The notes below the pieces were generated by a model. It did no database searches and was not told where the DNA came from. It was given only the letters and a program-made list of their open reading frames with translations. From the NCBI GenBank assembly GCA_040752415.1, contig JBFMGU010000078.1, forward strand, positions 1-40,655: 40,655 nt of DNA, given 5' to 3'. Position 1 is the first letter of the stretch. Every line of letters starts with the position of its first letter. Positions 31,075 through 39,236 of this stretch are shown here, one piece after another. The position numbers and the translations under genes were made by a program. The stretch is from Myxococcota bacterium (lineage in GTDB: Bacteria; Myxococcota; JACRCW01).

Positions 31075-31196
31075 CTCCAAACCTCCGGAGCTTCGCATCG
31101 GCACGGGTCGGGACGGCCTTGAGCCGGAGTGCGCGGTCCGGCGCCGCCCATGCCAAGTCACCCCTCGGTCGGGTCATGGGGTTGGAGAATCCCCAC

Positions 31197-31286
31197 AGAA
31201 GGAAGTCAGGAGTCAGAAAGAAGGTGGTCACGTGACGACGACGGGCGAGCACCATCTGCATTCTGACTTCTGACTTCCTTCTTCTG
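31197..31286. repeat. Large inverted repeat (18/18-bp arms with 1 mismatch, GGAAGTCAGGAGTCAGAA / TTCTGACTTCTGACTTCC) around a 42-nt spacer containing the 10-bp palindrome GTCACGTGAC
   Basis: Read directly in the sequence. Arms at 31201-31218 and 31261-31278 carry an internal tandem heptamer AGTCAGG/AGTCAGA. It lies between the SRPBCC gene stop and the PilZ gene start. Confidence 0.6.
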
Positions 31287-31303
31287 GCCCCCCCCACCGC
31301 GCT

Positions 31304-34734: not shown

Positions 34735-34939
34735 GGTTTCCCCGGAGATTGTGGCGACGTGCAACACCGTCGAGTAATGGCGTGATTCGCACTTGCAGCA
34801 GCCGCGGTGCGCTTCCTACCCTCGGGTCGAAAATTTCGCGGGTACTTGTGCAGTGGAGATGTTGAGCTGAGCCGCGTTTTTCAGTCCGGACGTCCAGGTT
34901 GTGGCGGGATTGGTGAACTGGTGTGGCTGTGGAGCCCGT

Positions 34940-35563
34940 ATGTCGCAGCAGCGAAAGCGCAGGACACAGATGGATCAGGTCTCGGAGCAGGCGGCGCGTT
35001 TGTCTCCGACGATCTTTGAATGCGTGCAGGAACCCGTGGCCATTGCGGACATGGACCGGGGGCTGGTGTTTTGGAACAAGGCGTTCGCAAACCTGGTGGG
35101 CCACCACGGTCCGGACGGAGACGGATTCTCGTCGGCGGGAGCGGACTGGGACCCCCTGGAGACGCGGGAGGTGATTCGCCTGGTCAACGGCGAGACCACC
35201 GTGGTGGCGTATGACAAGCACTACACGCACCGGGAGGGACACACCGTGCCCATCCGGGTGCGCGTCTCCATGCTGAAGAGCAACGACGGCTCGGGACAGG
35301 CCTACCTGGTGGTGGCGCGTCCCAACGTCCCGCAGCAGGAGGGACGCTCCACGCGCGTGGAGTGCGCCGCGCGGGAGTGGGACCTCACCGGGCGTCAGAC
35401 GGAGGTGCTGGAGCTGTTGGCGCGCGGCCTGGGCAACAAGGAGATTGCCTCCCGGCTGCAGTGCGCGGAGAGCACGGTGGAGTTCCACGTCACCGCGCTG
35501 CTGCGCAAGTCCAGCACCACCAGCCGCGCCAACCTCATCTGGGCGCTGTACTCCCGCTGGTAA
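34940..35563 (+). CDS. PAS-sensor / LuxR-type HTH transcriptional regulator
   Basis: N-terminal PAS-like region (VAIADMDRGLVFWNKAFANLVG). C-terminal LuxR HTH (LTGRQTEVLELLARGLGNKEIASRLQCAESTVEFHVTALLRK). Confidence 0.7.
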   Translation: MSQQRKRRTQMDQVSEQAARLSPTIFECVQEPVAIADMDRGLVFWNKAFANLVGHHGPDGDGFSSAGADWDPLETREVIRLVNGETTVVAYDKHYTHREGHTVPIRVRVSMLKSNDGSGQAYLVVARPNVPQQEGRSTRVECAAREWDLTGRQTEVLELLARGLGNKEIASRLQCAESTVEFHVTALLRKSSTTSRANLIWALYSRW

Positions 35564-36345: not shown

Positions 36346-37563
36346 ATGACCAGCCTGATTGCCTCGGTGAAGGCCGCCCACGCGCGGCACCGTCGACGTC
36401 ACACGCCCAGCGGGCACCGCTTTGCGCTCGCCGACGCGGTGGACTTCCTCAACCCGGCGCACTGGGACGCGCTCACCGCCGGCGCCAGCATCTTCCTGCA
36501 GCGCCCCTACCTGCGCCTGCTGGAGGAGGGCGGGCCCGCCAACATGGCCCAGCGCTACGCGCTCATCTACGAGGGCGACACGCCGGTGGCGGCGGTGGCG
36601 GCGCAGAGCGTCCACGTGGACGGCGCGCGGCTGCTCAAGGGCTCCCCCTCCGGCGGCGCGGCGCTGGCGCGCAAGGCGCTGGTGGCGGCGGTGCAGCAGT
36701 GGCAGGAGCGGCTGCTGGTGTGCGGCAACCTGCTCTCCTGGGGACAACACGGCGTGGCCATGGCGCCGGGCGCGGATCCCACGGCCACGTGGAGCGCGGT
36801 GGCGGAGGCGCTCTACCGGCTGCGTCGGGCGGACCGGCTCCACGGCGAGACGGACTTTGCCATGGTGAAGGACATTCCCGCCGCCCACCTGGAGCACGCC
36901 GGCGCGCTGCGGACGTTCAGCTACCGGCGCGTGGACACCGACCCGGACATGGTGCTGCGCATCCCGCCGGACTGGCGCACCCACGAGGACTACCTGGCCA
37001 GCCTCAACGCCAAGTACCGCAAGGGCGTGCGCCAGCTGCAGCGCGACGTGGAGAAGGCCGGCTGCACCGTGGAGCCGCTGCGCATCACGGCCGCGGACAC
37101 CGACGCGCTGCACGGGCTCTACCTGCAGGTGCACCAGCGCGCGCCGCTGCGCCTCTTCACGCTGCCGGAGGACTTCCAGGCCGGCCTGGCGGGCGCCTTC
37201 GGGGAGGGGTTCCGGTGCACGGTCATCCGCCAGTCGGGGCGGCTGGTGGGCTTTGTGACCACGCTGCGCGACGGCGACACCGCGGTGGGCTACCACATCG
37301 GCTTTGACCGGGCCCTCAGCGAGGAGGTGCCGCTGTACTTCCGCCTGCTCCAGGCCGCGGTGGCGGATGCGGTGGCGCTCGGGTGTCGCCGCCTCAGCCT
37401 GGGACGCACCGCCCTGGAGCCCAAGGCCAAACTGGGGGCGCGCCCGGAGCCGCTCGCCGTCTGGGTCCGCCACCGCGTCCCCGCCCTCAACCTCCTGGTC
37501 CGCACCCTGCTGGGCACGCTGGAGTTCGACGAGGCCCCCGACCGCAACCCCTTCAAGGACTAG
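36346..37563 (+). CDS. GNAT-superfamily N-acyltransferase of the FemAB/BioF2-like (DUF482/CelD-like) type
   Basis: 405 aa with FemAB-like architecture (FLQRPYLRLLEE...YHIGFD). It is the nearest upstream gene to the tandem sRNA array. Family call is moderate. Confidence 0.55.
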   Translation: MTSLIASVKAAHARHRRRHTPSGHRFALADAVDFLNPAHWDALTAGASIFLQRPYLRLLEEGGPANMAQRYALIYEGDTPVAAVAAQSVHVDGARLLKGSPSGGAALARKALVAAVQQWQERLLVCGNLLSWGQHGVAMAPGADPTATWSAVAEALYRLRRADRLHGETDFAMVKDIPAAHLEHAGALRTFSYRRVDTDPDMVLRIPPDWRTHEDYLASLNAKYRKGVRQLQRDVEKAGCTVEPLRITAADTDALHGLYLQVHQRAPLRLFTLPEDFQAGLAGAFGEGFRCTVIRQSGRLVGFVTTLRDGDTAVGYHIGFDRALSEEVPLYFRLLQAAVADAVALGCRRLSLGRTALEPKAKLGARPEPLAVWVRHRVPALNLLVRTLLGTLEFDEAPDRNPFKD

Positions 37564-37762
37564 AAAAACAGGGCACCGGGTACCTGCTGTGGCAACGCCG
37601 CCCTATTCCGGCAACACGTTGAAATTATTGGTCTTCTCGGACTTGTCAGCAAATTAATCGGGCGCGCGAACCCTTTCCGGGCCTGGTCGCACAATCTGCG
37701 CTCACGCTACAAGACCATGAAATCCATGTGTTTTCCGTCACTCTTTCGTTCCAGCGGACGCC

Positions 37763-37778
37763 TGGCACACCCTCTGCT
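37763..37778 (+). promoter_or_regulatory. Sigma-54 promoter, copy 1 (TGGCACA-N4-CTGCT)
   Basis: -24 GG and -12 GC are correctly spaced; an AT-rich tract lies upstream. Confidence 0.45.
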
Positions 37779-37788
37779 ATGACCTTCA

Positions 37789-37859
37789 TCGCACGGCGCG
37801 ATGCCCAGGCGGACTTCCCCCCCCGGTCCCCTTGAGGCGTTGCCCGTGCTCTTTTTTTT
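37789..37859 (+). ncRNA. Putative sigma-54-dependent small RNA, paralog 1 (~71 nt; Pxr-like)
   Basis: Predicted +1 lies 12 nt after the -12 GC. Transcript (U)CGCACGGCG...GCCCGUGC closes in a 6-bp outer stem followed by UCUUUUUUUU. The 60-nt core is identical to paralog 2. Confidence 0.45.
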
Positions 37860-38168
37860 CGACCTGGTTTCGCACGTCGCCAGGCATCGCTCCTCCCCAT
37901 CCCCCAGTTTCCGGAACGGTTGCCCCTGGCGGCGAGGCCCACCCCTGGCCGTGGCGCCGTACGTGGAAAATCCCGGTCATACCAACCCTGGAATGGCGTC
38001 GGCGCCCACCATTTGCCAACAGCTTGAAATCATGGAGTTTATCGACCGTCACGGGGACCCAAAACCCGGGCGCCATCGCCCTTTTCGTGGCCCCCGGGAT
38101 TTCCCCGTACCGCACACAAGATCTTGTAAACATTGATGAATTACCAATCGCCCGGAAGCACCAACGGC

Positions 38169-38184
38169 TGGCACGGCGACTGCT
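38169..38184 (+). promoter_or_regulatory. Sigma-54 promoter, copy 2 (TGGCACG-N4-CTGCT)
   Basis: Best match to TGGCACG-N4-TTGCW. An AT-rich tract with an IHF-like half-site (CATCAATGTTTAC on the minus strand) lies about 40 nt upstream. Confidence 0.5.
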
Positions 38185-38194
38185 ATGTCCAGGT

Positions 38195-38265
38195 ACGCAC
38201 GGCGCGATGCCCAGGCGGACTTCCCCCCCCGGTCCCCTTGAGGCGTTGCCCGTGCTGTTTTTTTT
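38195..38265 (+). ncRNA. Putative sigma-54-dependent small RNA, paralog 2 (~71 nt; Pxr-like)
   Basis: ACGCACGGCGCGAUGCCCAGGCGGACUUCCCCCCCCGGUCCCCUUGAGGCGUUGCCCGUGCUGUUUUUUUU. Outer stem GCACGG/CCGUGC, an internal C8 tract, and a U8 run. Confidence 0.45.
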
Positions 38266-38561
38266 CGACTTCGTCTCCCGCCCAGCCCAGTCCCCCCCGG
38301 GTTCCGGAACCCAGCCCCCGGCCGGTGAAGCCCGCCCTGGCCGCGGCGCTTTGCGCGGAAAATCCAGGTCAAGACCGCCCTGAAATGGCATCGTCGCCCA
38401 CCATCCGCCAACATCTTGAAATCATGGGGTTTATCGGCTGTCACGCGGCCCAGAACCAGGGCACCCACGCCCATCAAGTGCATCCAGGGATTTGCCGGGA
38501 TGAGGATTCAAACGCTTGTAAACATTGATGATTTTTCCATCGGCGGGAAACGCCCAACGGC

Positions 38562-38577
38562 TGGCACGGTGACTGCT
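38562..38577 (+). promoter_or_regulatory. Sigma-54 promoter, copy 3 (TGGCACG-N4-CTGCT)
   Basis: Same architecture as copy 2 with a GTGA spacer. Confidence 0.5.
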
Positions 38578-38587
38578 ATGTCCAGGT

Positions 38588-38655
38588 GCGCACGGCGCGA
38601 TGCCTCGGACTTCCCCCCCCGGTCCCTGTAGGCGTTGCCCGTGCTTTTTCTTTTC
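38588..38655 (+). ncRNA. Putative sigma-54-dependent small RNA, paralog 3 (diverged: 4-nt deletion and substitutions in the middle; terminator UUUUUCUUUU)
   Basis: ...GAUGCCUCGGACUUCCCCCCCCGGUCCCUGUAGGCGUUGCCCGUGCUUUUUCUUUU. Outer stem and C8 tract are retained while internal positions differ from paralogs 1 and 2. Confidence 0.4.
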
Positions 38656-38741
38656 GACCTCCCGCACAGACGCCGACGGCCGGAACCAGCCCTGGCCGGC
38701 TCCGGCCGCCGTGGTGCGGCTGAGTCACGCGGGTGCGCGGC

Positions 38742-39236
38742 TCAGTCGAACAGGCCTCCACGTTCCTTCTCATGCAGGCGCTCGGTGGTCTTCACGTAGT
38801 CCTTGTTGAGGTCCTCGAACGCGTTGCGGATGTCGTCGCGGAGCTCGGTCATCTTGCGTGAGTCGACGCCCGGGTCGGCCATCTTGCGGGCGCGCTCCTT
38901 GGTGTCAAAGGCCTTCTCACGCATCTTCTTGATGTCGTTCTTGAGGTCGTTCCGCAGGTCCTTCTCCTGCTTGTTGGCCACGTCCTCCAGGTGATCCAGC
39001 TTGTTCTCGAAGCCGTCCAGCATGGAGATGATCTCCCGCGAGCCGGTCTGCTCACGGATGTCTCCCAGCACCCGCTGGTAGCCCTTCTCCACGTCCACCT
39101 TCTGGCCCGGCTTGGCGTCCTTCTGCACGTCCACGTCGTACTGCTTGACGTCCGTGTCCTTCTCGTCGGCGTGGGCGTAGCTGCCCACCGCGGCCACCAG
39201 ACCCACCGTCAAACCCGCCAGCAACTTGCTGCGCAT
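38742..39236 (-). CDS. Small secreted, highly charged (Lys/Asp/Glu-rich) hypothetical protein
   Basis: Perfect RBS GGAGG 7 nt before ATG 39236. Signal peptide MRSKLLAGLTVGLVAAVGSYAHA is followed by about 140 aa of charged helical sequence. Confidence 0.6.
   Translation of the reverse strand: MRSKLLAGLTVGLVAAVGSYAHADEKDTDVKQYDVDVQKDAKPGQKVDVEKGYQRVLGDIREQTGSREIISMLDGFENKLDHLEDVANKQEKDLRNDLKNDIKKMREKAFDTKERARKMADPGVDSRKMTELRDDIRNAFEDLNKDYVKTTERLHEKERGGLFD

Follow-up and report, generated by a model that had tools for sequence, protein, structure and literature searches.

A 1.18-kb intergenic gap in a 40,655-bp stretch of DNA (referred to as the window, which is one whole contig from a metagenome-assembled genome that NCBI lists as 'Myxococcota bacterium') was analysed and found to contain three head-to-tail units, all on the + strand, between a GNAT/FemAB-like gene (36346-37563, +) and a convergent gene for a protein of 164 amino acids (aa) (38742-39236, -). 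These units are probably three tandem paralogous genes for a sigma-54-dependent small RNA, the C-rich loop of which would pair with G-rich targets. As judged from the sequence, each copy appears as a free-standing non-coding unit with its own promoter and intrinsic terminator, and the predicted structure appears to be kept through compensatory changes in relatives, across two lineages and in an alignment fitted to the model. An earlier note on this DNA had described the array as a tandem triplication of a gene like that of the myxobacterial small RNA Pxr; the triplication was borne out, and the homology to Pxr was not.

The units are spaced by 406 bp (unit 1 to unit 2) and 393 bp (unit 2 to unit 3), and copy 3 is followed by the remnant start of a fourth unit of about 80 bp (38661-38741, a GC-rich inverted repeat recognized as repeat D6 and by tail alignment), which abuts the stop codon of the convergent 164-aa gene. 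The motif TGGCAC-N5-CTGCT was matched nowhere in the window but at 37763, 38169 and 38562 on the + strand, once in each of the three units, with 0.69 matches expected by chance, and the -24 GG and -12 GC elements of these promoter-like sites are correctly spaced. The sigma-54-type promoters are thus located by motif scan at 37763-37778 (TGGCACACCCTCTGCT), 38169-38184 (TGGCACGGCGACTGCT, 0 mismatches) and 38562-38577 (TGGCACGGTGACTGCT, 0 mismatches), all on the + strand; the form TGGCACG-N4-CTGCT given previously holds as a site of this type in all three units but not to the letter, copy 1 starting with TGGCACA. About 25-55 bp upstream of each promoter an AT-rich tract recurs, at 37715-37736 in unit 1 (~-50 to -25), 38123-38146 in unit 2 (CTTGTAAACATTGATGAATTACCA, also listed as repeat D5) and 38515-38539 in unit 3 (CTTGTAAACATTGATGATTTTTCCA, also present in the repeat listing). 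The tracts, which had been noted before, were recovered both by unit alignment and by a dip in GC content, which falls once per unit to 0.55-0.58 as against ~0.72 in the neighbouring genes. Further upstream, ~125-155 bp before the promoter, a block of the form CAACA-N-[CG]TTGAAAT...TCG was found by unit alignment at 37610-37640 (GGCAACACGTTGAAATTATTGGTCTTCTCGG, ~-155 to -125), 38015-38046 (GCCAACAGCTTGAAATCATGGAGTTTATCGACC) and 38407-38437 (GCCAACATCTTGAAATCATGGGGTTTATCGG), and it is the sole spacer block conserved in all three units (69-84% identity). No strand is assigned to the tracts, the blocks or the fourth-unit remnant.

An upstream site, a bendable tract and a -24/-12 promoter make up the classic layout of an activator-dependent sigma-54 promoter. 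By its position the upstream block is a candidate enhancer site for a sigma-54 activator, and the AT-rich tract a candidate DNA-bending or IHF-type site. The inter-copy spacers held no conserved inverted repeat callable as an activator site, and no convincing conserved RNA structure was found in the spacer between copies. Beyond promoter and RNA, identity between the units is only ~60-80%, a divergence that also accounts for the failure of Tandem Repeats Finder to report the array.

The predicted RNAs would begin near 37789, 38195 and 38588, as placed by the geometry of the -12 elements, and would extend on the + strand over 37789-37859 (copy 1, ~71 nt; hairpin 37791-37849, then UCU8), 38195-38265 (copy 2, ~71 nt; hairpin 38197-38255, the same as in copy 1, then UGU8) and 38588-38654 (copy 3, ~67 nt; hairpin 38590-38644, then U5CU4). 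The spacer between promoter and hairpin is 12 nt in each copy. Each RNA is a single long interrupted hairpin of ~23 bp (59, 59 and 55 nt in copies 1, 2 and 3), which directly abuts the U-rich run and displays the nine-base loop UCCCCCCCC (U + C8) in all three copies. Folding energies were -37.4, -37.4 and -31.5 kcal/mol, and z-scores against dinucleotide shuffles were -6.0, -4.1 and -3.1, respectively. The proposed ~70-nt RNA ending in a hairpin and U-run thus stands as to length and terminator, but there is no separate body, the single hairpin being itself the terminator. A simple terminator scan, which allows loops of up to 8 nt (<=8 nt), misses these hairpins because of that limit. Their - strand lacks a U-run, so that they would not act as bidirectional terminators.

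Copies 1 and 2 are identical over 61 nt (60 nt in the earlier note), and copy 3 is 4 nt shorter through two gaps rather than one 4-nt deletion: the 5' arm has a 3-nt gap as well as a substitution, the 3' arm a 1-nt gap as well as substitutions. The two gaps, lying in opposite arms, jointly remove a 4-bp CAGG/CUUG helix segment; the U-run is interrupted as well, and copy 3 gives the impression of partial degeneration. When the three window copies alone were used for a covariance model (model R2), it scored them at 117 bits (copy 1), 121.7 bits (copy 2) and 107.3 bits (copy 3), and did not find a fourth copy in the window.

The open reading frames (ORFs) that cross the array have flat GC over the codon positions (0.54-0.70), compared with a GC of 0.92-0.96 at the third codon position in the neighbouring genes, and their comparison with Pfam gave nothing significant, the one match being at chance level (E = 0.088). 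Between units 2 and 3 there are several insertions or deletions whose lengths are not multiples of three. A small-ORF or coding reading of the array was rejected on the codon-position GC and the negative Pfam result, in agreement with the earlier note, which had held that no protein could explain the conservation. Divergence among the paralogs spares the RNA, as also claimed: between copies 1 and 2 the hairpin is identical at 59/59 positions, whereas identity falls to 58% in the adjoining spacer, to 75% in the promoter and to 44-71% in the region upstream. Copies 2 and 3 have flanks that are more alike (64-94%) and hairpins that are 90% identical. Since copies 1 and 2 are closest to each other in the hairpin, and copies 2 and 3 in the flanks, the RNA segment evidently has a history of its own, shaped by purifying selection, gene conversion or both.

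Database searches were performed for the RNA itself and for its loop. Rfam 15 gave zero matches in the whole window at the gathering score and a single chance microRNA match (E = 4.4) in the array region at a permissive threshold, so that the Rfam search suggested previously for a Pxr-type family came out negative at both settings. The loop-plus-tip motif was searched in three collections, comprising species-representative genomes, viral contigs and metagenome contigs. It occurred at 105 loci among one genome per species (185,579 species), apparently all chance matches, and the two myxobacterial loci among them (L025 and L068) were inspected and found to be unrelated; viral contigs gave 0 matches, and metagenome contigs gave 111 loci with the loop motif and 0 matches to a stricter pattern (5' stem plus loop). 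A separate observation from the same search is a dispersed repeat in Leptolyngbya, Stenomitos and Oscillatoriales (CCGGGGGACTTCCCCCCGGTCCCCCGC...GGGG(G/T)CCTAACTC; loci L010, L011, L023, L062, L077, L093, L095, L098, L116, L128 and others), which matches the motif by chance and is unrelated to the array.

When all motif-bearing loci were screened for a sigma-54-type promoter upstream, one metagenome locus was left (L165), in which the motif follows 50 nt after the start of TGGCACGGAGCCTGCA, as compared with 49, 49 and 45 nt in the window copies. The chance expectation for a motif match with such a promoter at that distance is 0.0175, and TGGCAC-N5-CTGC[AT]AT occurred once in 2.86 Mb of control loci, at L165 itself. 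The RNA of L165 adjoins a gene for type-2 isopentenyl diphosphate (IPP) isomerase, and an ortholog of the RNA (L218) was reached without the motif, via an 88%-identical IPP isomerase gene; in relatives of the L165 lineage with IPP isomerases 81% and 71% identical, the RNA was absent at that locus. Both loci come from an uncultured lineage labelled Deltaproteobacteria/Pseudomonadota, and each holds a ~150-nt RNA of three stem-loops with a sigma-54 promoter, divergent from the isomerase gene (L165:1685-1853, +; L218:1003-1170, -). The first hairpin is 57-59 nt long and its 20-nt tip, GGACUU-C7/C9-GGUCCC, equals that of the window RNAs; the second is a short GGUG...CACC hairpin, and the third a terminator hairpin with a second C-rich loop. 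The RNA had no match in Rfam and seems to be a small RNA that has not been described before and has a layout like that of Pxr.

The promoter signature TGGCAC-N5-CTGC(T/A)-AT and the 12-nt spacer to the hairpin are shared by all five sequences (the window copies, L165 and L218), as are hairpin length and tip. The relatives differ from the window RNAs in having two further stem-loops, in being single-copy, in the ~55% GC of their genome and in their neighbouring genes. Model R2 matched both at full length (L218, 29 bits, E ~1e-5; L165, 24 bits, E ~3e-4) and gave no other full-length match among 100 motif-bearing metagenome control loci. L165 and L218 differ from each other by 3 compensatory pair changes and 2 wobble changes, with 0 pair-breaking changes. 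In the alignment of all five sequences 94% of cells form standard pairs and 8 of the 23 pairs change on both sides, compared with 4.2 +/- 1.2 in shuffles and 0-3 in slid controls; eight such changes were reached by 1 of 500 shuffles. The folding and covariation analysis that the earlier note had called for thus came out in favour of a conserved structure. Common ancestry and structural constraint are the simplest reading of the window RNAs together with L165/L218, because promoter signature, 12-nt spacing and hairpin length are shared and because the basal stems differ in sequence and yet pair. The five probably make up a small new family of a known kind, which may be a distant branch of Pxr.

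If the three units are small-RNA genes, their working may be pictured as follows. An activator encoded elsewhere in the genome would bind the conserved block ~125-155 bp upstream of each promoter, and the AT-rich tract would let the DNA bend, so that sigma-54 RNA polymerase at TGGCAC-N5-CTGCT could be opened. Transcription would start near the three predicted 5' positions, ~12 nt past the -12 GC, and stop at the U-run, yielding an RNA of ~67-71 nt that would be essentially one 23-bp interrupted hairpin. This hairpin would serve both as intrinsic terminator and as display of the nine-base U+C8 loop, the likely seed for pairing with target mRNAs at G-rich sites (ribosome-binding regions or G-runs). 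Having three copies would increase dosage or leave room for divergence. The motifs, the structures and their conservation are seen in the sequence; that the genes are expressed, which activator acts on them, where precisely the 5' ends fall and how targets are recognized is inferred.

Parts of this proposal have counterparts in known systems. RepG of Helicobacter pylori, LhrC1-5 and the RsaE-type small RNAs of Firmicutes use C- or C/U-rich hairpin loops, including the terminator loop, as seeds that pair with G-rich sequence near ribosome-binding sites, and LhrC1-4 are tandem multi-copy genes. The proposed seed mode would resemble the terminator loops of RepG and LhrC and the essential loop of the first stem-loop (SL1) of Pxr; as regards RepG, LhrC and the RsaE-type RNAs the likeness is one of mechanism only, for they are unrelated in sequence, are not sigma-54-dependent and belong to other phyla. 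Qrr1-5, GlmY and CrcZ are transcribed from -24/-12 promoters under an enhancer-binding activator, and the Qrr RNAs are redundant multi-copy paralogs. They differ from the window RNAs in sequence and structure, their copies are not head-to-tail units of ~400 bp, and none of them was matched by the window in Rfam.

Several points weigh against the small-RNA reading. The genes are predictions from sequence, and intrinsic terminators seldom have a hairpin as long as 23 bp. A target search over the 28 gene starts of the window gave none beyond background, the best duplex energies lying at the 5th percentile of background; targets, if any, would be elsewhere in the genome. Among the window genes scanned, none showed a Sigma54_activat domain. 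Recent gene conversion, instead of selection, could account for the identity of copies 1 and 2. L165 was itself found via the loop/tip motif, the five-sequence alignment was fitted to the model, and only two independent lineages are compared, so that the covariation rests on essentially one divergence.

Homology to Pxr has to be weighed against what is published on that RNA. The pxr gene has a sigma-54 promoter and lies downstream of pxrR (nla19), which encodes an NtrC-like regulator, and in M. xanthus the next gene is pxrA (MXAN_1079), which encodes a GNAT acetyltransferase; pxr has been reported upstream of pxrA or of an NADH dehydrogenase gene (PMC5568312, PMC11928866). Pxr has three stem-loops and becomes non-functional by a C-to-A change in the loop of the first, three tandem paralogs (two of them functionally degenerate) are present in Cystobacter minor and C. 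violaceus, and its origin has been placed within Cystobacterineae (PMC5568312, PMC5684412, PMC11928866). The Pxr biology given in the earlier note (sigma-54/PxrR dependence, tandem paralogs in Cystobacter and an adjacent GNAT gene) agrees with these accounts (PMC5568312, PMC11928866). Pxr acts as a block to development, and the form Pxr-L is processed to Pxr-S. For comparison the ancestral Pxr sequence was rebuilt from published primers and the Northern probe and was used as the sole Pxr representative; its fold, at -57.9 kcal/mol (published, -57.5), has the three stem-loops known from the literature. The covariance model of this ancestor (model R1), a weak test in that it rests on essentially one sequence, matched none of the three copies at E <= 10 and gave in L165 an offset match only (E = 7). 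Local alignment of Pxr was at chance level against both the window RNA (p = 0.24) and the L165 RNA (p = 0.32).

That the three genes are true, highly diverged Pxr homologs, in an SL1-only form outside the known range of Pxr, is on balance unlikely. The likenesses are nevertheless considerable. Window copies and pxr have in common a sigma-54-type promoter with an upstream enhancer region (in the window a sequence match and a candidate region, respectively) and a first hairpin that begins within ~5 nt of the 5' end. The loop of that hairpin is a U followed by a C-run, UCCCCCCCC in all window copies and UUCCCCCC(C)A in Pxr SL1 according to the primers, so that the U(U)C8 form is comparable and the C-run range of 6-8 is shared. 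A tandem triplication with a degenerating copy is found in the window as in pxr of some species, and both hosts belong to Myxococcota. The three-stem-loop layout of L165/L218 also parallels Pxr, with the same hairpin tip as the window RNAs, a GGUG..CACC second stem-loop and a terminator as the third, and the nearest named homologs of a transporter encoded near the array are in Hyalangium and Archangium. Against these stand, besides the blank Rfam result, the unmatched ancestor model and the chance-level alignments, a structure of one stem-loop rather than three. Pxr is ~108 nt long with SL1-SL3, including a conserved 8-bp SL3 segment, and needs SL3 for accumulation, whereas the window RNA is a single 55-59-nt hairpin fused to a U-run in which SL2 and the SL3 segment are absent. 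The common loop is merely ~8 nt long and of low complexity. No pxrR/pxrK gene adjoins the array, whereas one lies upstream of pxr, and the acyltransferase gene that had been likened to the neighbour of pxr does adjoin the array but lies upstream of it and not, as in M. xanthus, downstream, and is of the Acetyltransf_6/FemAB-like type. The host is uncultured and only distantly related to the Pxr-carrying genera; its contig is labelled no further than 'Myxococcota bacterium', and the best named homologs of one neighbouring gene (Hyalangium/Archangium) are only 41-50% identical. Since several defining features of Pxr are lacking, the array is not demonstrably a member of the Pxr family and was not filed as one; 'Pxr-like' is fair as an analogy of probable working, not as an established family assignment. 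As the Pxr model was built from essentially one sequence, a distant homology keeps a low but real probability. As to the loop, its C-run was 8 nt in the window, 7 in L165, 9 in L218 and 6-7 in Pxr alleles, and the homopolymer seems free to slip in length while remaining C-only.

The remaining readings deny the units a role as genes for a regulatory RNA. They might be a decaying segmental duplication of an intergenic promoter-terminator module with no trans role, the identity of copies 1 and 2 then being due to recent conversion, and this we regard as rather improbable. It would suit the loss of a helix segment and the interrupted U-run in copy 3, the negative target search, and the grouping of copies 2 and 3 by flanks and of copies 1 and 2 by hairpin, a pattern typical of conversion; but a conversion confined to exactly the 61-nt RNA amid ~60%-identical flanks would hardly be expected unless selection were at work, all three units have kept their promoter cores and the upstream block, and another lineage has a relative that is conserved in structure though its stem sequences differ. 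Considerably less probable still is a role in cis or as DNA, in which the units would be a cluster of activator or sigma-54 sites titrating a regulator, or insulating terminators. The position of the array between the convergent GNAT and 164-aa genes would fit such a role, and published work suggests that extra copies of the pxr promoter/enhancer region can sequester factors. Terminators for the flanking genes, however, would need no sigma-54 promoters, the hairpin without its - strand U-run is not a bidirectional terminator, and the best conserved element is the transcribed hairpin, not the binding blocks. Finally, the unit is repeated and has a strong hairpin, as would a dispersed repetitive or mobile element (of the type of a repetitive extragenic palindrome (REP) or a miniature inverted-repeat transposable element (MITE), or phage-derived), but this is scarcely credible: there is no further copy within the 40.6-kb window, terminal inverted repeats and a transposase gene are absent, and the loop motif gave chance matches only in the 185,579 species genomes, 1 genuine match in the metagenome collection and 0 in the viral one. 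The possibility of a widespread dispersed repeat, which the earlier note had named as fatal to its proposal, thus found no support in these scans. Three tandem genes for a small RNA are accordingly retained as the most likely reading of the array.

The protein encoded upstream of the array (36346-37563) is 405 aa long, and its closest homologs are 55-64% identical and mostly from Pyrinomonadaceae and Blastocatellia (Acidobacteriota), not from myxobacteria, which suggests that the gene adjoining the array was acquired horizontally. In the nearest homolog (64% identical) the genes on either side are unrelated to those of the window, and an intergenic gap is absent. Directly after the stop codon of the GNAT gene a terminator-like hairpin and T-run is found on the - strand (37572-37584), which may stop antisense transcription leaving the array. 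Downstream of the array the 164-aa protein gene is followed by a gene for an AI-2E transporter, the best named homologs of which are in Hyalangium, Archangium and Myxococcaceae (41-50% identity); the Hyalangium locus, where the transporter homolog (50% identical) is on a long contig, has no synteny with the window. No orthologous locus was found in the databases, and the contig is the sole record of its own proteins, so that a close relative is absent from them. Because the homologs of the neighbouring genes are only distantly identical and without synteny, the host is taken to be a myxobacterium distant from cultured forms. About 2 kb upstream of the array lies a PAS-LuxR (GerE) regulator gene (34901-35563), which is not a sigma-54 activator. 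Elsewhere in the window, at 31190-31295, an inverted repeat of 21 nt (GAAGGAAGTCAGGAGTCAGAA ... TTCTGACTTCTGACTTCCTTC) with a C8 run after it was observed in the gap separating two - strand genes, one with a PilZ domain and the other polyketide-cyclase-like; this may represent a terminator or some other structured RNA.

If expressed, the array would represent an undescribed small-RNA family in an uncultured myxobacterial lineage, of a compact design made from standard parts, in which one hairpin would be stabiliser, terminator and seed display at once and the three copies would have diverged to different degrees. It is of limited practical value, since all that is known of the host is a metagenome-assembled genome and no mechanism without precedent is involved. 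A broader proposal, put forward here as doubtful, is that the window RNAs, the L165/L218 RNA and Pxr descend from one ancient sigma-54-driven 'C-loop' small RNA. Were it true, the 'C-loop' ancestor would have belonged to Myxococcota and related deltaproteobacterial lineages, and Pxr would not be a recent arrival within Cystobacterineae; SL1, the C-loop hairpin, would have been the original working part, capable of acting by itself once joined to a terminator, and the C-loop family would have undergone tandem amplification time and again. The finding thus has a bearing on where Pxr, the gatekeeper of multicellular development in myxobacteria, came from: the same promoter class joined to a C-run loop outside Cystobacterineae argues either for an older origin or for convergent C-loop RNAs under sigma-54.

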